A DNA stretch of 64,000 nt from Pseudotamlana carrageenivorans. GTDB taxonomy: Bacteria > Bacteroidota > Bacteroidia > Flavobacteriales > Flavobacteriaceae. Of the stretch, positions 6,304 through 34,824 are shown piece after piece; position 1 is the stretch's first letter, and the number at the start of each line of letters is the position of its first letter. The position numbers were made by a program, and so were the translations under genes. The stretch covers positions 1,822,673 through 1,886,672 of the forward strand of contig NZ_CP025938.1 in NCBI RefSeq assembly GCF_002893765.1, written 5' to 3'. The notes below the pieces were generated by a model. The model worked only from the letters and a program-made list of their open reading frames with translations. It was not told where the DNA came from and made no database searches.

Positions 6304-7305
6304 ATGGTGACATTAAAACAATTGGCTAAAGAGCTAAATGTATCGATTTCTACAGTTTCAAAAGCCCTAAATAATAGCACCGAGATAGGTGGCGAAACCG
6401 TAAAACGTGTTAAAGAACTCGCCGAATTATATAACTATAAACCCAACAAGGTTGCTTTAAGTTTAAAACAGAATAAAACCAAAACTATTGGTGTTATAAT
6501 TCCTAATATTCTGAATCATTTTTTGGCTAAAGTTCTTTTCGGAATCGAACGAGAGGCGACTAAACACGGTTATAATATCATTACTTGTATTTCTAATGAA
6601 TCTTTAGCTCAGGAAAAGGAAAGCTTACAATTACTGGCCAGCGGAAGTGTTGATGGATTTATCTTGTCCATGGCCGAAGAAACGCAAATTAAAGGTGAGG
6701 TTGAGCATTTCAAAAGAACCATTAGTCAGGGGTTACCTGTGGTCATGTTTGATCGCGTTGCTCACGATGTGATGTGCGATAAAGTGATTGTAGATGATTT
6801 TGAATCCACCTATAATGCTACAAAAACCTTATTAGCCGAAAACCGGAAAACTATAGGTTTTATTAGTAACATCAACGATTTAAGTGTTGGGAAACTTCGA
6901 GAACGCGGTTATAATAAAGCGATTTTAGAAGCCGGTATGGAGGCACTGGTTTTAAAACTTAAGAAAAAAGATGATCAGCAGAAAAAGATTAAGAGTTTTT
7001 TCAAGAAAAATGGTCAGCTAGATGGTATTATTGCTGCCGATAGTTCTTCGGGAATAATTGGCTTAAATATGGCTGTGAATTTTGGTTTAAAAGTACCAAA
7101 GGATATCTCTGTAATTGGTTTTGCTAGTAAGTCCGATTCTTATCATACCTTACCCAGATTAACGACCATTCGTCAGCATGCTAAAATTATCGGATCTAAG
7201 GCAGCAGAACTTCTAATAACCAGGCTTCAACAAACGCCAAGGGATGAGAATTTTCGCACTAAAATAGTGAAAACGAGCCTCATAAAAAATAAATCTACAC
7301 TTTAG
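6304..7305 (+). CDS. LacI-family transcriptional regulator
   Basis: N-terminal HTH VTLKQLAKELNVSISTVSKALN plus a periplasmic-binding-protein-like sugar-binding core. Confidence 0.8.
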   Translation: MVTLKQLAKELNVSISTVSKALNNSTEIGGETVKRVKELAELYNYKPNKVALSLKQNKTKTIGVIIPNILNHFLAKVLFGIEREATKHGYNIITCISNESLAQEKESLQLLASGSVDGFILSMAEETQIKGEVEHFKRTISQGLPVVMFDRVAHDVMCDKVIVDDFESTYNATKTLLAENRKTIGFISNINDLSVGKLRERGYNKAILEAGMEALVLKLKKKDDQQKKIKSFFKKNGQLDGIIAADSSSGIIGLNMAVNFGLKVPKDISVIGFASKSDSYHTLPRLTTIRQHAKIIGSKAAELLITRLQQTPRDENFRTKIVKTSLIKNKSTL

Positions 7306-7597
7306 TTTGTTAAAATTTCGGGTATTTCAGCGATTATAGGTTCCTTTTTTAGGGGGGCTTTATAATTTTAAATATTTGTAATTATATTAGAATGCTGAAT
7401 GGTTAAAAAATTGCTTCTTTATTTCCTGTAAAAAATCATTCATGGCTATTTCTGGCCATTTTTCTCTCAATATCCATACGCTAATGGTCGTGCATTTAAG
7501 TGCGATTTCATATGTTTTGTTTAGTTGATTTTTACGGTCTAAAATTCAAAATACATCAATTTTTTAAAATAATATTTAACCTGAAAAACTCAAAAAA

Positions 7598-7744
7598 ATG
7601 AAAATTCTTAAAATCACCTTATTAGTAGCAGTCTTTATCACTTTATTCACTTCTTGTACTAAAGAAGATTTACATGAAGATGATATGTTGATAGACGAAA
7701 CTTCAACGACATTAATCACAAGCGGAAATGTAGTTGAACGCTAA
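7598..7744 (+). CDS. Small acidic lipopeptide precursor (48 aa), paralogue 1 of 3
   Basis: MKILKITLLVAVFITLFTSC|TKEDLHEDDMLIDETSTTLITSGNVVER. It has a signal peptide, a Cys lipobox and acidic residues after Cys+1 (a Bacteroidota surface-export-like signal). The C-terminal TTLITxGNVVER is conserved in all three copies, and differences between copies are mostly synonymous. Confidence 0.55.
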   Translation: MKILKITLLVAVFITLFTSCTKEDLHEDDMLIDETSTTLITSGNVVER

Positions 7745-7829
7745 TAAAAAATAAATTTCTCAAATCAAATAACAATTAAAAAAACGTAAAAATGAGGCCT
7801 AATAGACAAAATGGTTGGTCTTTTAACGC

Positions 7830-8404
7830 CTATTCTTGTACGTCTATTTTTGCTTTTAAAAACTCATTAATAAATTTGATTTTTCTTTGTTTGGTTAATC
7901 CGTTATGATTTCTGAGTTTGTTTTTTAAATCAGAAAAATGCCCATCAATCATATTGGTTGTATTAGGAATATTTAAATCGTAATTATCATACCATGTAAA
8001 TAACCATGTCATATTCGTATTAAGACTTCTATACGCACTCCTAAGTCGTTTATGGGTAAAATGACTCTTGCCTGTTTCATTATTAATAGTTCGCTCATTT
8101 AAAAAGCTTTCCCACTTAATAAACCACATATTTAATCCTCCTTCGAAAGATTCTTTATCTGTATTTTTGAGCATAGCTACATGCGTTTTTAATTCAATTG
8201 AAGCAAGCATTTTCGGGTTCTTAGTTATATATCTTCTTATTGCAGCAACTTGATGAAATTGACAGAGCTGGACAGGTATTCCTTTAAACGTACCAACCAA
8301 GCCTTTTCTACCATCACATACAATAGCAACAATCTCAAAACCTTTAGATTTTAGCTCATTAATCCCCTTTATATACAAAGCGTTAGTTTCTGATTTGACG
8401 TAAT
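7830..8404 (-). pseudogene. IS1-family-like transposase, C-terminal DDE fragment (upstream part displaced by IS21)
   Basis: The first ~17 codons of listed ORF 7830..8456 (GTG start) are read from the IS21 terminal repeat. The real sequence runs from …YYVKSETNAL… to …TTNMIDGHFSDLKNKLRNHNGLTKQRKIKF, which is IS1 InsB-like. Confidence 0.5.
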
Positions 8405-8489
8405 ACCTGGCTATTTCGGAGTGACCATGCCACGTATTTCGGTCAAACCGTGCCACTTTAAGAGATCATACAATAATAGTTAAATTTAA

Positions 8490-9302
8490 TTAATACTGTT
8501 CTTTCAACTTACCTTTTCTCAAGGATTCTCCAGTAAGGTTTATCCTATGCGATGAATTTACAATACGATCTAGTATCGCATCAGCGATAGTGCTTTCGCC
8601 GATAATATCGTACCAAGCGGATACAGGTATTTGTGAAGCTACAATCGTTGCTTTTTTATCATGTCTTTCATCGATTATGTCCATAAGCGCCTCTCTGTCC
8701 TGATTGTCGAAGCTCTGTAAACCAAAATCATCAAGGATAAGCAGATCTACTTTTAATAGTTTTGCAAGTTCTTTAAGGTAAGTGCCATCTACTTTACTTA
8801 GTTTTAATCGTTTCATCAGTCTAGCAGTATTTGTGTATAGGGTTCTTTTATTCATCATACAAGCTTGATGTCCCAATGCCTGAGCTATATAACTTTTACC
8901 CACTCCAGAGGATCCTGTGATAATCAAGTTTTCCTTTTTTTGTACAAAATCTAGAGTAGCCAAACGCTCGAACATATTTCTGTCCAAGCTTCTGTTGTGC
9001 AGGTAATTAATATCTGTAAGTGTAGCTCCCTGCTTAAAGGCTGCTTGCGTTGTAAGCCTTTTTATCTTTCTATTCTGAAGGTCTTCCCATTGGTGATCGG
9101 TAAGCAATGCTAGATATTGATCTGGCGTAAGACCCTCTATTCGGTTATCACTAAGGTGGTTGTGATGGAGTTCAGCCATAGCTGTTAATCTCATTTTTCT
9201 GAGTTTTTCGATGGTGTGATTTGTATTCATATATGTATAAAATTTAAGTGATTTTTTCGTGTTGTTTTTACTTATAATTGGATGCCCCACGGATGTTCGC
9301 AT
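8490..9302 (-). CDS. istB: IS21-family helper ATPase IstB
   Basis: Walker A GSSGVGKSYIA and Walker B DDFG in the IstB/DnaC-like fold. Confidence 0.85.
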   Translation of the reverse strand: MRTSVGHPIISKNNTKKSLKFYTYMNTNHTIEKLRKMRLTAMAELHHNHLSDNRIEGLTPDQYLALLTDHQWEDLQNRKIKRLTTQAAFKQGATLTDINYLHNRSLDRNMFERLATLDFVQKKENLIITGSSGVGKSYIAQALGHQACMMNKRTLYTNTARLMKRLKLSKVDGTYLKELAKLLKVDLLILDDFGLQSFDNQDREALMDIIDERHDKKATIVASQIPVSAWYDIIGESTIADAILDRIVNSSHRINLTGESLRKGKLKEQY

Positions 9303-10897
9303 GCTTGGGGATATGAGAACCTCGGTCTGTTTCTTCTTGTAGGAATAAGGAGCTTTGATCTAGATTATTCTTCAGTATGTTGGTTATCCTGTTGTAGCTT
9401 ACAGCATCAGCCTGTATGGCTCTTTTGCAAGCATTATCTAACCTTTGGGAGCCATAAGACTTATGGAGTTGTATAACGCCCATAGCTCTTTTATACCCTG
9501 TTTCAGGATAATCCAACGCAGCAATAATCCGCTCGACACATGCTGCAACATAACTACCATGGACAACTGCCTTGTTCTTAAAGTATTGCGGACTCCACTG
9601 GCTGTATTGTTTATGAGAACTACTAAGGTGATCCTTGTTGGTTATGTATGCGCCTTTGGAACCGCTACGTTGGTGTATAGCTATGCGCTGTTGATTATAA
9701 TACACCTCTACCATGCCTTTGGTATAGTGTAGCGTGGTTTCCTTGCCAATGTAACGATATGGAACGCTGTAGTAAGTCTTATCTGGTGAAAAATAGATAT
9801 AGCCTATTTTCTGAACCTTAGCTCTTCTATATTCTTTTATCTCGTAGCGTGTACTGCTTAAGGGTTTTAGATACTCTCGTTCGACGCTTTGGAAGAGCTC
9901 CAGACGACTAGCTTCTTTGCGTTGGAATAATAGGTTGTTGTAGCGCTCTAGTAGAAGTTTTATCTCTTTGTTTAGATCTGCTAAAGAAAAAAAGGTCATT
10001 TCCCGAAGGGGATAATAAATCCGTTGATAAGCTAGATGCACCGCGTTTTCCACCAGCGCTTTATCTTGAGGGGAGTAACTACGCGTTGGATTGACCACGC
10101 AGTTGTAATGGCGGGCAAAGTCTTTAAAACTACGGTTAACCTGAGCTTCGTATCTACTAGATCTGGTAACGACTGATTTTAGATTGTCTGATACGATGGC
10201 CTTGGGTACTCCCCCCGTAGAAATGAAGGGCGTTTTCGCAACAACTTATAAAATCTTCACGCTTTTGGCTCATACAAGCCTCAACATAGGTATACTGACT
10301 GTTAGGGAGCATGGCAACAAAGACCTCTACTGGAAGTATCTCGCCTGTGATTTTGTCTACTATCTGAAGTTTTTTTCCAGCAAAGTCCACGAACATCTCT
10401 TTCCCTGCCTCGTGTTCAAGTTTCATAGATCCCTTGATCTTGGCATATTTACGATGGTAATGCTCCATGAATTGAGTGTAACTATAAGGGTCTTTAACCT
10501 TTTGACTATATTCTGTGTAGTGGTACAAAAAAGTAAATCCTGGGTGGTTCCGAGCCTTATTAATACTTTCAAAATAAAGCATCAATTCATCATAGCGTTT
10601 GTTATTTATGGTTGTATGAGATGTAAAGAGCTTTTCTAGGGTGTGGTTGTCTAGCTTTAATAACTCCTTAAAACTATAACCACTACCTTTAAATAGGTGT
10701 ATATAGCTATTTATAGTGTTGCGGCAAATGCCAAGTGTGGCTCCAATTTGACGGTTACTATAACCATCTTGTTTTAAGTTGATAATTTGTTTTAGGTCCT
10801 TTGGATCAAGTGTGTTGGCCATATCGCTTTTTAGAGCAATAAGGTAATTACTTGATCTCTTAAAGTGGCACAAATCGAAACGGAAACATTGGCACAA
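9268..10897 (-). pseudogene. istA: IS21-family transposase IstA, frameshifted in a C6/G6 homopolymer at 10211-10216
   Basis: Listed ORFs 10157..10897 (HTH; …HFYGG) and 9268..10098 (…NPTRSYSPQDKALVENAVH…) join in one frame as HFYGG-VPKAIVSDNLKSVV…VVNPTR if one G is removed. The likely true start is the Met at 10822. Confidence 0.8.
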
Positions 10898-11008
10898 ATC
10901 AAACCGTTTTTAGCTAACTCAATTTCCGTGTGGCACAATTTAAACCGAAATCAACGGCACAGTAACTCCGAAATCACTGGCACAAATCGAACCGTGTTAG
11001 CCAATACC

Positions 11009-12119
11009 TCCGTATTCAAGAACTTAACGCAACAAATCTAAATTAATAGATTTGTAATTATGGTACGAAAAAAACAGGTAGACTTACCCTTAAAGAAAGA
11101 ATAAAGAATACAGATTGAGACTCTTTTAACTGAAAAAAAGAATAAATCATACATCGCTATAACCATTAACAGAGCTCGATCTACGGTTACAAGAGAAGTT
11201 AATAAATGGGTGCAAACAGATAGAGATAAATACTCAGCAGAACTAGCTCATTGGTGCGCCAAAGATGATTACCTAAACAAAAGAAATATTGATAAAATAT
11301 CTAAGTACCCTAGACTTCGAATTTATGTCTATAGGGGCTTATTATCACAATGGACTCCTGAACAAATTGCTGGAAGACTAAAAGAAGAATTCCCAAATGA
11401 TCCTATAATGTCTATTTCTCACGAATCAATTTATAGGTACATATATGCAAAGCCTCAAGCTAGTTTAAATAAAAAACTAATTAAACTCCTCGTACGCAAA
11501 AAAACAAGACGTAGACCCTCTAAAAAAAGACGCAGAACAGGATCTAAAATATTAAACCAAGTCAGTATAGACCTAAGGCCCGAGCATATTAACCTAAGAA
11601 ATGAAATCGGACACTGGAAAGGAGATTTAATGATTGGGAAGGATCAAAAATCGGCTATTGGAACTATCGTAGAACGCAAATCTAGATATACATTAATTAT
11701 CAAACTAAAAGCCAGGAACTCTAAGGAAATTGCTAAAATGTTTTCTAAAGAACTTAACAAACTAGATCCCATATTCAAAAAATCTATGACCTACGATAAT
11801 GGAATTGAAATGGCAAGACACGAAACAATTACCAAGAAAACAGGTATGAAAATTTACTTTGCACACCCCTATTCTTCTTGGGAAAGAGGTACCAATGAAA
11901 ACACTAACGGACTCATCAGAAGGTACCTCCCAAAAGGAACAGATTTTAACAAAATTGACTTAAATACATTCATCGAAATTCAAGAAAAATTAAACAATAG
12001 ACCTCGTAAAATTATTGGATTTAAAACCCCTAATGAAGTTATGATAAAAGAACTAAAAATTGTAGCTTAGACTCATACAAAAAAAAGCAACGTTTGTTGC
12101 GTTAGAACCTTGAATGCAG
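11009..12119 (+). mobile_element. IS30-family element; boundaries approximate
   Basis: Roughly 25-bp inverted repeats gtattcaagaacttaacgcaacaaa (11009-) and its reverse complement (-12119) bracket the IS30 transposase gene. Confidence 0.65.
11060..12070 (+). pseudogene. IS30-family transposase with N-terminal frameshifts at two A7 tracts
   Basis: Listed ORF 11210..12070 has the DDE region with HWKGDLMIG. The upstream HTH is present in two other frames (RLTLKERIKN / IETLLTEKKNKSYIAITINRARSTVTREVNKW), broken at aaaaaaa runs near 11069 and 11140. Confidence 0.7.
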
Positions 12120-12351
12120 CACCAAAGAAGATTCTCCTTGCTGTAAGCATCCTTAAAGAGCATTAATCCAAAGCTTCTCCCCCAATATGTTGTATCCATT
12201 AAGACAATAACTTTCTTAGGTGTTATCTCTACGTCCTTTACTTGATGAAGATCTAGTTTACGTTGTATAATTCGCTTTGAACATCCATATTTCTGAGAAA
12301 GCTGTAAATAGGTCTGCTTTCCTCTGGTATATTCATCCCAAAGAGAGTCTA
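12120..12351 (-). pseudogene. IS1-family-like transposase, N-terminal/middle fragment (between the IS30 and IS256 insertions)
   Basis: Reverse strand reads …SLWDEYTRGKQTYLQLSQKYGCSKRIIQRKLDLHQVKDVEITPKKVIVLMDTTYWGRSFGLMLFKDAYSKENLLW, in frame with the far side of IS256 copy 1. Confidence 0.45.
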
Positions 12352-13705
12352 GAGTTTATCCAAAATTTTGTGTTTTTGAAAAATAATTTCAAAATTCATA
12401 GGTTAAAATAATATAGATTATAACCTGTTTGGAAAACAAATATACAATTGATTGTAAATTTGGCCCCATTTAAATCGTGTTTTCTTCCATTTTTTGCTGA
12501 TGCTTTGAGCTGCTAAATATATGGATTTCAGTGCTGCATCATCATGAGGGAAGACTTTTTTGTTGCGTGTATATTTTCTTAAACTGGCATTAAAACTCTC
12601 AATGATATTGGTAGTATATATAAGTTTTCTAATCTCTTTTGGGTAGTTTAAAAACGCGGTCAAATTATCCCAATTGTTTTCCCAAGACTGTACGGCAGAG
12701 AGGTATTTATCTTCCCAATTTTGTTTAAAGACTTCGAAAGCCTCTAAAGCGAATTTCTCATTATCGGCTTGATAAATAGCTTTAATATCGACCATTATTG
12801 ATTTACGGTCCTTATAGCTCACATATTTTAAAGAGTTTCTAATTTGATGTACGATACATATTTGACGTATACTACCTGGAAAAATAGCTTCTACAGCTTT
12901 ATCTAATCCAGAGAGGTTATCCGAACACAGAAAGAAGATATCTTTTACGCCTCTAGAGCGCAGATCGTCTAAAATGGACATCCAAGCAGCTGCCTTTTCT
13001 GTCTCCACAATACTCATGCTCAAAATATCTTGTTGCCCTTCGGTATTCACCCCTAAAACTATCATACAGGCTTTAGATATTACCTTGCCTTCTTGACGTA
13101 TTTTATAATGAATAGCATCTATCCAGACAATGGGATATACGTCTTCTAAAGGTCTATTCTGCCATTGTTTGATGTCTTCCAATAATTGATTGGTGATAAT
13201 GGATACCTGTGATGTGGAATACTGCACTCCATAGGTACTTTCAATAAAATCAATAATATCGCTATTGCTCATACCTTTGGCGTAAAGCAGTTGAATACAA
13301 TCTTCTAATTCTTGACTAATCGATTGATGTTTGGGGACAATAACAGGCTCAAAGCTCGCTTGACGATCTCTGGGGATTTTGATGCGTTGTTCGCCGTTAT
13401 GAGTCTTGATAGTTTTCTCTGAGAAACCATTGCGCTGGTTGTTCTCAATTACAGAACCTCCTTTTTGAAACCCTAAGTGGGCAGTCATTTCTGCTTTTAA
13501 AAGTGATTCAATACCACGTTTAAGCAACTGTTCCTTGACCTGGTCAAAGTCCTCCTTGTTGCTGATTTTGCCGATCAAGGCGTCTAATTGTTTTTCTAAG
13601 TCTGAGTTCATAAAATAAAAATTTAAAAGTAAATTTTTTGCCTATGAATTTCAAAATCATTTTTAAACTAACTAACAGCAAAAACACAAAATAGTTTACA
13701 GTCCC
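12352..13705 (-). mobile_element. IS256-family element copy 1 (1354 bp); 8-bp target-site duplication AGAGTCTA (12344-12351 and 13706-13713)
   Basis: Imperfect terminal inverted repeats gagtttatccaaaattttgtgtttttg and caaaaacacaaaatagtttacagtccc; perfect flanking direct repeats; identical to copy 2 at 33463..34816. Confidence 0.85.
12418..13611 (-). CDS. IS256-family (mutator-type) transposase
   Basis: 397 aa with the D…D…E and CxxH signature (…FPGSIRQICIVHQIRNSLKYV…TTNIIESFNASLRKYTRNKKVFPHDDA). Confidence 0.9.
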   Translation of the reverse strand: MNSDLEKQLDALIGKISNKEDFDQVKEQLLKRGIESLLKAEMTAHLGFQKGGSVIENNQRNGFSEKTIKTHNGEQRIKIPRDRQASFEPVIVPKHQSISQELEDCIQLLYAKGMSNSDIIDFIESTYGVQYSTSQVSIITNQLLEDIKQWQNRPLEDVYPIVWIDAIHYKIRQEGKVISKACMIVLGVNTEGQQDILSMSIVETEKAAAWMSILDDLRSRGVKDIFFLCSDNLSGLDKAVEAIFPGSIRQICIVHQIRNSLKYVSYKDRKSIMVDIKAIYQADNEKFALEAFEVFKQNWEDKYLSAVQSWENNWDNLTAFLNYPKEIRKLIYTTNIIESFNASLRKYTRNKKVFPHDDAALKSIYLAAQSISKKWKKTRFKWGQIYNQLYICFPNRL

Positions 13706-13918
13706 AGAGTCTACTTGAATTTCTTTTCCTCCAGTAAAAACACTTTTACAATTCAAACATTTATAACGCTGTTTTTCTAATCTAACACCATATTTATGGG
13801 TTAGTAAGCTATTACAAAATTTACATTTTTTTTATTCAAAGCCTTTGATTTGCTTCAAAGCTAATAAACATAAGCTCTTCGAAAGGATTTACCAACCATT
13901 TTGTCCATTACATCAAAA

Positions 13919-14065
13919 ATGAAAATTCTTAAAATCACCTTATTAGTAGCAGCCATTATTACTTTGTTTACTTCATGTACTAAAGAAGATTTGCATGAAG
14001 ACGACAAACTCGTCGAGGAACTAACAACGACCTTAATTACAGGTGGAAATGTAGTTGAGCGTTAA
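13919..14065 (+). CDS. Small acidic lipopeptide precursor (48 aa), paralogue 2; its start codon lies inside the target-site duplication of the composite IS
   Basis: MKILKITLLVAAIITLFTSC|TKEDLHEDDKLVEELTTTLITGGNVVER. Confidence 0.55.
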   Translation: MKILKITLLVAAIITLFTSCTKEDLHEDDKLVEELTTTLITGGNVVER

Positions 14066-14115
14066 AAAAAAGATTACAAATATAATATCTAATGACAATT
14101 AATAAAAACGTAAAA

Positions 14116-14262
14116 ATGAAAATTCTTAAAATTACCTTATTAATTGCAGTCTTTATAACAATTTTTGCTTCGTGTACAGAGCAAGACCTACAAGAAGATG
14201 ACATGCTTACTGATGAACCAACAACGACGTTAATCACAGGCGGAAATGTAGTTGAGCGCTAA
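14116..14262 (+). CDS. Small acidic lipopeptide precursor (48 aa), paralogue 3
   Basis: MKILKITLLIAVFITIFASC|TEQDLQEDDMLTDEPTTTLITGGNVVER; a 50-bp spacer separates it from paralogue 2, like the spacer between copy 1 and the interrupted copy. Confidence 0.55.
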   Translation: MKILKITLLIAVFITIFASCTEQDLQEDDMLTDEPTTTLITGGNVVER

Positions 14263-14368
14263 TTAGGTATTTGTAAATTTAGATGGCTTTTTATATAGGT
14301 TTGATCATCGGTTTTAGATAAATTGAAAAATTATAGATACATTTGAAGGTGTTTACCCCCTGATACTT

Positions 14369-16393
14369 TTGAAACGCTTTATTTTCTTTTTATTCTCGAT
14401 AGTCTTGTGTGTTAATCTTTCTTTTACTCAGAATTATAGTAAAGAAAAGTTTGACAGGGTACTCTATTATTTAAGTGAGTCGAGTAATCCAGAGCATAAT
14501 TTAGAGGAAAAAAAGGAACTTGTTTTAAAAGCTAAGGATTTAGCGTTTGATATGAATAGCTATTCCCTATTGTTGCAGTGTAACCAAAAACTTTTAGAAT
14601 TAGATAAGGAAATGGGACATAGTGGTTCCTTTCTAAAATTGAGTCATGAAAACTTACAACTAGCAGAAAAGTTTAAAGATACGACTACCATAGCTCAAAT
14701 AAATAAAAACTTAGGCTATTATTATTTTGATAAACAGGTCGATAGTGCACATTTTTATAACCATCGCGCGGAGAAATTGTTTAAACAATTAAATGATCAT
14801 TATAATACGGCTGCAGTATTATTAGATATCGCTTTGCTTCAACGTGGTGCCAAGGATTATACAGGTAGTGAACTGACGTCAATTGAAGGCATCATGCTTT
14901 TAAACAAAATAAAAAAACCGACAAAAGAGGTTATTCAAAAAAAGGCATTTTTCTATAATAATTTAGGGGTGGTTTTTAATGGTTTAGAGCAATATGATAA
15001 ATCTATTGAATATCAAAATAAGTCTATAGAACTCAAGTTAAGGTTAAAAGGAAATAATAAGGCGGCTATAGATTTTTCAAAAAACAACTTAGGAAACGTA
15101 TTAAAAAATGCCGGACAATATGAGTTAGCATTAAAGACTTTAGGGGAAGTTCTTGAAGATGAAACTTTAGAAAATGAATCACCCGAATTTTACGCCATCG
15201 TCCTCGACAACTATGCACACACTTTATATTTGTCGAATGATAGAGACGCCTTGCCAGGTTTATATCATAAAGCCTTGAAAGCAAGCAAAGCTGCCGGTAT
15301 AGATGGTTATAATTCTATAATCATTTTTCAACATTTAGCCGAATATTCTAATGATTTGGGATTGAAGGATTCCGCTAAATATTATGGTTATGAAGCCAAG
15401 CGTATTGCAGAAAAATATTATAATGACGCCCTCTTGAAATCATTATTATTACTTTCAAAAATTGAGGAAGGCGAGGTTGCTGCCAACCATTTAAGAAATT
15501 ATGTGCGACTTAATGATAGCCTTCAGAAAAGTGAACGGGCTATTAGAAATAAGTTTACTAGAATTAAGTTTGAAACTAATGAGATAGAAGAGGAGAATAT
15601 TAGAATAGCACGCGAGCGCATGTGGTTGTTAGTTATTTCAATTGTAGTTATTGTGGCTTCTATTTTATTATACATCATATTTACACAGCGCAATAAAAAT
15701 AAGAAGTTAGAGTTTATTCAACAACAACAACAAACCAACGAAGAAATTTATAATCTTTTACTTGCTCAAAATGAAGTTGTTGAGGATGCTCGAGCTTTAG
15801 AAAAGAAACGTATTTCGGAAGAGTTACATGATGGTGTGCTAGGGAAACTTTTTGGTGCTCGTTTAAGTTTGGATAGCTTAAATACCAATACGAGTCCCGA
15901 GGCCATGAAAACAAGAAGCCAGTATATTGCTGAGCTTAAAATGATAGAAGAAGACATTAGAAAAGTCTCACATGAGTTAAATGCCGATTTTGTTTCGGGT
16001 TCTGGTTTTAGAGGTATTATTAAAACCTTAGTGGAGACCCAAACTGTAGCTTACGGACTTGAATATAAATTAGAATGGCAGTCTACTATCGATTGGGATG
16101 AGGTTTCAAATAAAATAAAAATTCATTTTTATAGAATTATTCAAGAGGCGCTCCACAATATTTATAAACATGCTAATGCAAGTAAAGTGAATCTTGTTTT
16201 TAAATTGGAAAATAATGCCGTTTGTTTAAGTATTATTGATGACGGTGTTGGATTTGATGTGAGCAGAACAAAATCTGGCATTGGCCTTAAAAACATGACC
16301 TCAAGAATAAAGGAAATACAAGGAAAAATAGACATAATTTCTAAAAAAATAGAAGGAGGAACCACGGTAAATATAGATGTCCCCATATCTTAA
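14369..16393 (+). CDS. Sensor histidine kinase with an extracytoplasmic TPR-repeat domain (HisKA_3 + HATPase_c; NarL/LuxR-type partner)
   Basis: Signal peptide, about 400 aa of TPR-like repeats, TM helix MWLLVISIVVIVASILLYIIF, H-box EELHDGVLGKL and G-boxes GIGLKNM…GGTT. Confidence 0.8.
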   Translation: MKRFIFFLFSIVLCVNLSFTQNYSKEKFDRVLYYLSESSNPEHNLEEKKELVLKAKDLAFDMNSYSLLLQCNQKLLELDKEMGHSGSFLKLSHENLQLAEKFKDTTTIAQINKNLGYYYFDKQVDSAHFYNHRAEKLFKQLNDHYNTAAVLLDIALLQRGAKDYTGSELTSIEGIMLLNKIKKPTKEVIQKKAFFYNNLGVVFNGLEQYDKSIEYQNKSIELKLRLKGNNKAAIDFSKNNLGNVLKNAGQYELALKTLGEVLEDETLENESPEFYAIVLDNYAHTLYLSNDRDALPGLYHKALKASKAAGIDGYNSIIIFQHLAEYSNDLGLKDSAKYYGYEAKRIAEKYYNDALLKSLLLLSKIEEGEVAANHLRNYVRLNDSLQKSERAIRNKFTRIKFETNEIEEENIRIARERMWLLVISIVVIVASILLYIIFTQRNKNKKLEFIQQQQQTNEEIYNLLLAQNEVVEDARALEKKRISEELHDGVLGKLFGARLSLDSLNTNTSPEAMKTRSQYIAELKMIEEDIRKVSHELNADFVSGSGFRGIIKTLVETQTVAYGLEYKLEWQSTIDWDEVSNKIKIHFYRIIQEALHNIYKHANASKVNLVFKLENNAVCLSIIDDGVGFDVSRTKSGIGLKNMTSRIKEIQGKIDIISKKIEGGTTVNIDVPIS

Positions 16394-33191: not shown

Positions 33192-33462
33192 ATGACAAAG
33201 GACCCTATAAAGGAAGCGCACGCTCAAAAACTTGATGTTGGAACTTACGAGGTTATTCAAAATCGACTTCAAAAGCAAAAAACAGAATTACAGCAACGTC
33301 TTAAAAAACTTAACGAAGGTAGAAAGGTTGTTTTTGGATCTCTAGAAACAAAACTAATCACCAACGATCGTATTAATACAGAAAATAACTGTATTGCTAG
33401 AGATATTGTGTCTCTTGGAAACACTTGTTTGTTTGGTTATAATGTGCACTTTGGCTTACGAA
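33192..33462 (+). pseudogene. First 90 codons of the giant AAA+ ATPase gene, separated from the rest by IS256 copy 2
   Basis: …NVHFGLR stops at the IS boundary. Removing the IS and one copy of the target-site duplication restores HFGLR-TDIALNDVLSIYQFKENSFE in frame with 34845..39431. Confidence 0.6.
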
Positions 33463-34816
33463 GAGTTTATCCAAAATTTTGTGTTTTTGAAAAATAATTT
33501 CAAAATTCATAGGTTAAAATAATATAGATTATAACCTGTTTGGAAAACAAATATACAATTGATTGTAAATTTGGCCCCATTTAAATCGTGTTTTCTTCCA
33601 TTTTTTGCTGATGCTTTGAGCTGCTAAATATATGGATTTCAGTGCTGCATCATCATGAGGGAAGACTTTTTTGTTGCGTGTATATTTTCTTAAACTGGCA
33701 TTAAAACTCTCAATGATATTGGTAGTATATATAAGTTTTCTAATCTCTTTTGGGTAGTTTAAAAACGCGGTCAAATTATCCCAATTGTTTTCCCAAGACT
33801 GTACGGCAGAGAGGTATTTATCTTCCCAATTTTGTTTAAAGACTTCGAAAGCCTCTAAAGCGAATTTCTCATTATCGGCTTGATAAATAGCTTTAATATC
33901 GACCATTATTGATTTACGGTCCTTATAGCTCACATATTTTAAAGAGTTTCTAATTTGATGTACGATACATATTTGACGTATACTACCTGGAAAAATAGCT
34001 TCTACAGCTTTATCTAATCCAGAGAGGTTATCCGAACACAGAAAGAAGATATCTTTTACGCCTCTAGAGCGCAGATCGTCTAAAATGGACATCCAAGCAG
34101 CTGCCTTTTCTGTCTCCACAATACTCATGCTCAAAATATCTTGTTGCCCTTCGGTATTCACCCCTAAAACTATCATACAGGCTTTAGATATTACCTTGCC
34201 TTCTTGACGTATTTTATAATGAATAGCATCTATCCAGACAATGGGATATACGTCTTCTAAAGGTCTATTCTGCCATTGTTTGATGTCTTCCAATAATTGA
34301 TTGGTGATAATGGATACCTGTGATGTGGAATACTGCACTCCATAGGTACTTTCAATAAAATCAATAATATCGCTATTGCTCATACCTTTGGCGTAAAGCA
34401 GTTGAATACAATCTTCTAATTCTTGACTAATCGATTGATGTTTGGGGACAATAACAGGCTCAAAGCTCGCTTGACGATCTCTGGGGATTTTGATGCGTTG
34501 TTCGCCGTTATGAGTCTTGATAGTTTTCTCTGAGAAACCATTGCGCTGGTTGTTCTCAATTACAGAACCTCCTTTTTGAAACCCTAAGTGGGCAGTCATT
34601 TCTGCTTTTAAAAGTGATTCAATACCACGTTTAAGCAACTGTTCCTTGACCTGGTCAAAGTCCTCCTTGTTGCTGATTTTGCCGATCAAGGCGTCTAATT
34701 GTTTTTCTAAGTCTGAGTTCATAAAATAAAAATTTAAAAGTAAATTTTTTGCCTATGAATTTCAAAATCATTTTTAAACTAACTAACAGCAAAAACACAA
34801 AATAGTTTACAGTCCC
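33463..34816 (-). mobile_element. IS256-family element copy 2 (1354 bp, identical to copy 1); 8-bp target-site duplication CTTACGAA (33455-33462 and 34817-34824)
   Basis: Identical sequence and encoded transposase to 12352..13705; perfect flanking direct repeats. Confidence 0.85.
33529..34722 (-). CDS. IS256-family transposase (identical to 12418..13611)
   Basis: Identical 397-aa product. Confidence 0.9.
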   Translation of the reverse strand: MNSDLEKQLDALIGKISNKEDFDQVKEQLLKRGIESLLKAEMTAHLGFQKGGSVIENNQRNGFSEKTIKTHNGEQRIKIPRDRQASFEPVIVPKHQSISQELEDCIQLLYAKGMSNSDIIDFIESTYGVQYSTSQVSIITNQLLEDIKQWQNRPLEDVYPIVWIDAIHYKIRQEGKVISKACMIVLGVNTEGQQDILSMSIVETEKAAAWMSILDDLRSRGVKDIFFLCSDNLSGLDKAVEAIFPGSIRQICIVHQIRNSLKYVSYKDRKSIMVDIKAIYQADNEKFALEAFEVFKQNWEDKYLSAVQSWENNWDNLTAFLNYPKEIRKLIYTTNIIESFNASLRKYTRNKKVFPHDDAALKSIYLAAQSISKKWKKTRFKWGQIYNQLYICFPNRL

Positions 34817-34824
34817 CTTACGAA

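Follow-up and report, generated by a model that had tools for sequence, protein, structure and literature searches.

How did 6.1 kb of insertion sequences come to lie between two genes for short, lipoprotein-like peptides in Pseudotamlana (Tamlana) carrageenivorans, and why can no start codon be found for the transposase of the outermost of these elements? We studied this locus in a window of 64,000 nucleotides (positions 1,822,673 to 1,886,672 of NZ_CP025938.1), and all coordinates below are those of the window. The host genome has 4,116,543 bp, and many copies of all four elements discussed here are annotated in it. An original prediction, made from the sequence without database searches, had described an IS1-like element that harbours IS21, IS30 and IS256 elements, these being nested in one another and inserted at a start codon. 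We propose that a zinc-finger variant of the IS256 family entered an array of peptide genes and was later hit by IS30, IS21 and a canonical IS256 element, and that the lack of a start codon is a trait of the variant's family. We assign this reading a probability of roughly 0.9.

The first step in the argument is to establish what the outermost element was before it was interrupted. The whole block occupies positions 7796-13914 (6,119 bp) and is flanked by an 8-bp direct duplication, AAAAATGA. Its outer inverted repeats lie at 7796-7819 and 13891-13914, where 20 of the 24 first positions match; a repeat-finding tool gives the arms as 7800-7819 and 13891-13910 (20 nt, 95% complementary). The parts that belong to the outer element and its duplication are as follows.

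7788..7795, no strand: left copy of the outer duplication AAAAATGA, identical to the octamer at 13915-13922 and holding a stranded ATG (7792-7794)
7796..8407, minus strand: 3' segment of the outer element, with the inverted repeat 7796-7819 and transposase codons 120-310 plus the stop (7830-8405)
12124..12351, minus strand: middle segment of the outer element, with transposase codons ~43-119 and the first catalytic Asp in LMDTTYWG
13714..13914, minus strand: 5' segment of the outer element, with the inverted repeat 13891-13914, a TAGCTTTG box, TTG, AAT, an A8 run and the zinc-finger codons
13915..13922, no strand: right copy of the outer duplication AAAAATGA, holding the ATG (13919-13921) of peptide gene 2

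Using tblastn, we mapped the transposase fragments of the outer element to 13831-13706, 12352-12122 and 8405-7833. The predicted splitting of this frame in three by IS256, IS30 and IS21 stands, with small corrections of coordinates. The prediction also holds for the duplications, for the inverted repeats and for the repeats at the ends of IS21. The 3' segment ends in ATACC (8403-8407), which is the left IS21 duplication, and within it ACC (8405-8407) is the left IS30 duplication. Similarly, the last 8 bp of the middle segment (12344-12351) are the left copy of the IS256 duplication, AGAGTCTA.

We rebuilt the outer element by removing IS21, IS30 and IS256 together with one copy each of ATACC, ACC and AGAGTCTA. 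The segments 7796-8407, 12124-12351 and 13714-13914, joined in this way, make up 1,041 bp, and a single long frame runs through them on the minus strand. The lengths of the four elements, with one copy of each inner duplication, sum exactly to that of the block (1041+2596+5+1112+3+1354+8 = 6119). Four full-length copies from other genomes measure 1,039-1,041 bp, and the rebuilt element aligns over its positions 1-1041 with elements of this size from Polaribacter filamentus, Formosa sp. and Tamlana sp., at 84-85% DNA identity. The Tamlana copy (L020) has an 8-bp duplication of its own, CAGAATGA. Given the exact length sum and the end-to-end alignment, the pattern is not due to chance.

The protein leads to the same result. 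The rebuilt transposase has 99% identity with WP_241910375, which the same species encodes without interruption, the junction LLWYYVKS included, and the intact protein reads ...KENLLWYYVKSETN... straight through the point where IS21 and IS30 are inserted (a junction match to P0001). The frame and the sequence are restored only when ACC is counted once. From the rebuilt element and its match to the intact protein, it follows that ACC and ATACC arose by duplication and that no other part of the element has been lost. As it stands in this genome, the outer transposase gene is in three pieces and is dead.

To which family does the rebuilt element belong? Its transposase matches the NCBIfam model NF048019 (“IS256 family transposase, variant Zn-binding type”) with 414.8 bits (cutoff 150), over profile positions 2-301 of 304. 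The scores with the IS1249 model (119.7 bits, residues 2-296) and with the IS256 model (31.5 bits, residues 114-288) are below the respective cutoffs of 300 and 150. RefSeq gives the name of the variant to the 208-aa fragment that remains of the protein (AUS05447.1 / WP_102995477.1). No Pfam family matches the transposase, the IS1-type catalytic domain DDE_Tnp_IS1 included; some of its homologues carry a precomputed PF00872 annotation. A BLASTP comparison with the resident canonical IS256 transposase finds 24% identity over 172 aa (E = 2e-5), covering the second Asp and the TTNxI[D/E] motif, and the best solved-structure match to a profile of the outer family is a Mutator-family transposase (6xg8, E = 0.0015). 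The 8-bp duplications AAAAATGA and CAGAATGA agree with the 8-9 bp of the IS256 family, and inverted repeats are present. On its sequence, we classify the outer element as a compact, 1,041-bp zinc-finger variant of the IS256 family, with a zinc finger of the IS1 type.

With the branch of zinc-finger variants within the IS256 family (NF048019, akin to the IS1249 group), the element has in common the full-length model match, the Mutator-type core, the 8-bp duplication, inverted repeats of ~24 bp and a single transposase gene. It differs from IS256 in being only 1,041 bp long, in its four-Cys N-terminal zinc finger of the IS1/IS1595 type, in the third catalytic Asp found in most members and in a transposase frame that has no start codon of its own. 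The TTNxI[D/E] motif is common to the outer and inner IS256-type transposases even in DNA (7945-7963 versus 12599-12617, 17 of 19 nt).

The lack of a start codon had been noticed in the original prediction, which stated that the frame upstream of CKFC runs into a stop next to an A8 tract. A TAA followed by the A run (13826-13833) is indeed there, but it is not damage specific to this copy. The relevant feature is the following.

13823-13839, minus strand: candidate recoding region of the outer element, with TTG (13839-13837), AAT, A8 (13833-13826) and the first Cys codon (13825-13823)

We compared this region in 25 loci from genomes (L001-L025) and 77 loci from metagenomes (within L035-L114); 85 loci were parsed automatically. 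All 25 related genome loci (58-92% protein identity) have the same start-less arrangement. So do the 77 metagenome loci, 73 of which keep a reading frame of ~301 aa. The start codon in the parsed loci is ATG (57/85) or TTG (28/85); in 83 of the 85 it precedes the first Cys codon by 14 nt, which is the +1 frame with respect to the transposase. In 77 loci, AAT is the second codon. The A run behind it is A8 in 48 parsed loci, A7G in 33, A7 in two, A7C in one and A6GA in one, and is thus at least A7 in 84/85.

Two further features bear on how this region is read. Firstly, the Cys (TGT/TGC) and Lys (AAA/AAG) codons beside the run vary synonymously, which indicates that the transposase frame is translated there. 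Secondly, 68 of the 85 loci have a TAnnTTTG box, the form in which the -7 promoter element occurs in Bacteroidetes, at a distance of 24 nt upstream from the start (here the TAGCTTTG box, 13863-13856). The position of this box suggests that the out-of-frame ATG or TTG is the first start codon on a short leader. In addition, a distant relative from Parcubacteria (L026) has the same N-terminus encoded with a plain in-frame start, ATG GCT AAA AAG TGT.

These comparisons suggest that the missing start codon reflects a family-wide programmed -1 frameshift or transcriptional slippage. Translation would most likely start out of frame, at the TTG or ATG that precedes the first Cys codon by 14 nt. The transposase frame could then be entered by either of two routes: a -1 ribosomal slip, on A AAA AAU in members with A8 or on an A_AAA tetramer in members with A7G, or the addition of one extra A during transcription of the A7-8 run. 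Either route would yield a product beginning MNKKKC.... The unshifted product would be a peptide of ~12 aa without conserved sequence, and the device might serve as a throttle on transposase synthesis. We hold with moderate confidence the stronger form of this proposal, in which a large and mostly Bacteroidota branch of the IS256 family would make its transposase only by recoding at the gene start, in an A7-8 run at codons 3-5.

We also considered the ATG inside AAAAAAAATG as a start, and rejected it. This ATG is followed directly by TAA, and it consists of the last base of the Lys codon and the first two bases of the Cys codon, so that it becomes GTG where Lys is encoded by AAG. No conserved in-frame non-canonical start of the outer transposase was found in the loci compared.

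It might seem simplest to regard the missing start as decay or as a quirk of annotation, with the true protein beginning at a downstream Met or Leu and lacking the first CxxC. Every public gene call of the family does start downstream (270-282 aa among the best matches) and leaves out the first Cys pair, and a protein search finds more than 5,800 homologues. However, the pattern C..C.S....K.G.....Q.YKC..C is kept ahead of these downstream starts in ~100 loci, with synonymous TGT/TGC and AAA/AAG changes. The fixed distance of the out-of-frame ATG or TTG also speaks against it, as does the Parcubacteria relative, which has the same N-terminus behind an in-frame ATG. We consider this explanation unlikely.

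The candidate site has partial precedents. IS1 makes InsAB' by a -1 frameshift at A AAA AAC, and the A AAA AAU of A8 members in the outer family is the Asn-codon twin of this heptamer. In IS1, the shift occurs mid-gene and joins two functional domains, and the unshifted product is a regulator. In the outer family, by contrast, the shift would occur at codons 3-5 and leave an unshifted peptide of ~12 aa, and the catalytic domain is not of the IS1 type.

A review of recoding names IS1, IS3, IS5 and IS630 as the families that use frameshifting (PMC5009743). A survey of the Mutator superfamily describes a -1 frameshift between two substantial frames in the Mutator-related ISMich2 group (PMC3942029). 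This group is likewise related to Mutator and IS256 and needs a conserved -1 frameshift for its full-length protein; however, its transposase extends over two substantial frames, whereas the upstream frame of the outer family comprises only four to five codons. A start-proximal recoding site is absent from both papers, ISfinder being outside this comparison. A literature search that covered this genome, IS256 variants with a zinc finger and frameshifting close to the start brought up nothing specific.

If the proposal is true, thousands of database entries of the outer family are N-terminally truncated, and frameshift control of transposition extends to the IS256 family, at an unusual position beside the start codon. 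The candidate recoding site is the sole part of the locus that might be of specialist interest. The nest itself documents insertion-sequence activity of a routine kind. It also indicates which elements look active, the inner IS256 being intact and IS21 and IS30 being damaged as assembled.

What, then, entered the outer element? The inner elements, and a second copy of one of them elsewhere in the window, are as follows.

8408..11003, minus strand: IS21-family element of 2,596 bp, with ends TGGCTA...TAGCCA and the 5-bp duplication ATACC
8490-9230, minus strand: istB, intact (NF038214, 226.7 bits, cutoff 200)
9268-10822, minus strand: istA, frameshifted by an extra base in a G6 run (C6 on the plus strand, 10211-10216)
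11004..11008, no strand: right copy of the IS21 duplication ATACC, of which the final ACC also borders IS30 on its left
11009..12120, plus strand: IS30-family element of 1,112 bp, with its transposase gene at 11060-12070 and the 3-bp duplication ACC
12121..12123, no strand: right copy of the IS30 duplication ACC (left copy 8405-8407)
12352..13705, minus strand: canonical IS256-family element of 1,354 bp, with an intact 397-aa transposase (12418-13611)
13706..13713, no strand: right copy of the IS256 duplication AGAGTCTA (left copy 12344-12351)
33463..34816, minus strand: second IS256 copy, 1,354 bp and 100% identical, with the duplication CTTACGAA at 33455-33462 / 34817-34824

The inner IS256 is the sole intact element of the four. 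Its transposase matches NF033543 (408.9 bits) and PF00872 (365.2 bits), and its ends are fixed to the base by the identical copy at 33463-34816. Both copies have the transposase, the inverted repeats and an 8-bp duplication of their own, as is expected for the IS256 family.

The IS21 element has both istA and istB, TG...CA ends, subterminal repeats and a duplication within the short range (4-8 bp) of its family. When one G is removed from istA, a 517-aa protein results, with a single continuous match to NF033546 (224.8 bits, cutoff 160); no entry identical to this repaired IstA was found in the protein collection. Five direct repeats of the GGCACA type are situated beside istA, at 10867, 10891, 10932, 10956 and 10979 (span 10867-10998), and two inverted copies are at the other end of the element (8429-8456). 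By analogy, these repeats are putative IstA-binding sites. The IstB protein is annotated as AUS05448.1, and an identical IstB is annotated at at least four loci of the genome. The G+C content of IS21 (~38-42% in 8600-10400) is above that of the flanking genome and of the other elements (~30-35%).

The IS30 element likewise has the features of its family, i.e., a transposase with HTH_38 and rve domains, terminal inverted repeats (22 of 32 positions match) and a duplication of 2-3 bp. An alignment against L028-L031 reveals two indels in its gene: a 1-nt deletion at or beside an A7 run (11068-11074) and a 7-bp tandem duplication (AAAGAAT x2, 11096-11109). Repair of both yields a protein of 334 aa that does not differ from AUS07070.1, an intact IS30 transposase of this species (100% identity), and that matches HTH_38 (34.8 bits) and rve (42.2 bits); the score with NF033563 is 277 bits as assembled and 285 bits when repaired. 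The public annotation has a 286-aa frame here (AUS05449.1), and the same shortened product is annotated at at least two loci of the genome (P0272 = AUS05449.1, AUS06565.1; also P0276). N-terminal lesions may therefore be common to several IS30 copies, and in that case defective copies would have been mobilised in trans. As assembled, both IS21 and IS30 look defective. For IstB and for the IS30 and IS256 transposases, the Pfam matches are in line with the NCBIfam assignments. A tblastn search with the four transposases found no further diverged copies within the window.

The site that the outer element entered can be determined from the genes on either side of the block.

7598..7744, plus strand: peptide gene 1, encoding a 48-aa lipoprotein-like peptide (RefSeq; comparison with Tamlana sp. 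s12)
13919-14065: peptide gene 2, with its ATG at 13919-13921, inside the right copy of AAAAATGA
14116-14262: peptide gene 3

As predicted, the outer element has inserted at the start codon of peptide gene 2, and its duplication is found at 7788-7795 / 13915-13922. An ATG is stranded on the far side of the element, as had also been predicted, but its coordinates are 7792-7794 instead of 7791-7793. A comparison with relatives had been suggested as a check, and it does reveal the un-inserted array: in Tamlana sp. s12, the orthologous locus consists of a LacI regulator, five tandem 48-aa peptide genes, a TPR histidine kinase and a response regulator, in the same gene order and without any insertion sequence. 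The window minus the 6.1-kb block aligns with this array without a break over the junction (L033 7299-8201). The empty site and the continuous alignment together place the insertion between peptide genes 1 and 2.

The reading frame and the ATG of peptide gene 2 are undamaged. The original prediction held that the insertion had cut this gene off from its promoter. We find this plausible, but it depends on the array being one operon. Two of the three peptide genes are parted from the upstream sequence by the block, as are possibly the adjoining sensor kinase and response regulator, and the block might exert a polar effect on peptide genes 2 and 3.

From this arrangement, we infer the following order of events. 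The outer 1,041-bp element would have entered the peptide array first, duplicating AAAAATGA together with the start codon of gene 2. IS30, IS21 and the canonical IS256 would then have entered the outer element independently, the dead element presumably offering a harmless landing pad for resident insertion sequences. The elements had been predicted to be nested in one another; instead, three independent inner insertions lie side by side in one host, and the nesting depth is two. The inner IS256 is probably the latest insertion, because an identical copy is found 20 kb away. IS21 and IS30 abut, and their duplications, ATACC and ACC, overlap. As a rough estimate, the probability that two independent insertions into a target of 1 kb fall no more than 2 bp apart by chance is ~1%, which hints that IS21 or IS30 may have targeted the end of the other.

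In other respects, the block resembles the nests of insertion sequences within insertion sequences that are found in genomes rich in such elements: there is the same pile-up in an inactive element, each insertion has its own duplication, and the history can be rebuilt by peeling the insertions away. Nothing essential differs, and what is notable is the overlap of ATACC and ACC, which puts one insertion exactly at the end of its neighbour. We regard the nest as an ordinary outcome of insertion-sequence expansion in an IS-rich genome.

A different history would have the 6.1-kb block moving in as one loaded unit, mobilised in trans by the transposase of an intact sister element. Both outer inverted repeats are intact, and the same species has uninterrupted proteins of the outer family (WP_241910375 and others). 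However, the genome annotation contains a single entry for the 208-aa fragment that continues into the end of IS21 (AUS05447.1), and thus gives no sign of a second composite. The identity of the inner IS256 with another copy is what a recent local hop predicts, and a loaded element, six times as long as usual, would make an uncommon substrate for transposition. We judge this history improbable by comparison with successive insertions into a resident outer element.

Even less probable is the assignment of the outer element to the IS1 family, on which the predicted count of four families depended. There is some real likeness to IS1: the element has a QRYxCxxC finger like that of InsA, a duplication of a size (8-9 bp) that fits IS1, and an A-rich slippery heptamer. 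Its N-terminus passes the cutoff of NF050000, the zinc-binding domain of IS1/IS1595 (31.5 bits, cutoff 28), and its CxxC...QRYKCxxC finger matches the first 42 positions of the IS1 model, which explains how the IS1 idea arose. However, this zinc-binding domain is common to other families and does not discriminate IS1. The IS1 model NF033558 itself gives only 20.2 bits (cutoff 100), confined to the zinc finger (residues 3-43), as against the full-length match to NF048019 and the match of residues 2-296 to the IS1249 model. The similarity to the IS256 transposase and to a Mutator-family structure points away from IS1, and the element has neither the IS1 catalytic transposase, nor the length of ~770 bp, nor the two-gene insA/insB' layout with a mid-gene A6C frameshift. 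These results rule out the IS1 assignment. Three families are present in the block, with IS256 represented twice, by the outer variant and by the inner canonical element.

Finally, an assembly chimera caused by repeat collapse is very improbable: the genome does contain many identical IS256, IS30 and IS21 copies, a classic cause of misassembly, and the homopolymer indels hint at long-read error, but all four elements have a perfect duplication of their own, matched pairs that a chimera would not make at four junction pairs, and once they are peeled away, a known element of 1,041 bp and a protein with 99% identity emerge, exact to the base.

It is important to consider the points that weigh against the reading that we prefer, namely successive insertions into a zinc-finger IS256 variant whose family lacks a start codon. 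The structure was read from the assembled sequence. The sole lesion of istA, in the G6 run, and one of the two in IS30, at or beside the A7 run, are single-base changes and are possible long-read errors, in which case these elements would be intact; for the 7-bp duplication in IS30, a sequencing error is unlikely. The starting sequence ...GTAATACCAAAG... yields the observed sequence whichever of IS21 and IS30 came first, and consequently their order is not recoverable. With respect to the family, classical IS256 members are ~1.2-1.5 kb in length, and at 1,041 bp the outer element is below this range. Its third catalytic residue is Asp (NMIDGHF), as in most of the outer family, where IS256 has Glu; Glu is kept in P0027, P0048 and L022. 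With respect to recoding, the case is a comparative one. A run of A7-8 is short for efficient transcriptional slippage. When RNAalifold was applied to 57 diverse sequences downstream of the A run, it gave no consensus structure (energy 0). A slip would accordingly lack stimulation and be inefficient, which would be in keeping with a throttle on transposase synthesis. An Rfam search found no RNA family in 7000-15000.

The peptides of the interrupted array have a lipoprotein-type signal (…LFTSC), an acidic mature part and a GGNVVER end, and no family matched them in Pfam or NCBIfam searches; their RefSeq annotations are WP_158651319 and WP_158651320. The array lies between a LacI-type regulator (AUS05446.1) and the genes for a TPR histidine kinase and a response regulator. 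Its copy number varies: there are three peptide genes in this window, whereas Tamlana sp. s12 has five and P. agarivorans has at least two. The second IS256 copy, at 33463-34816, splits a gene of ~1,600 aa (DUF3686, “ATPase involved in DNA repair”, with an AAA domain), which adjoins an SPFH/Band 7 gene.

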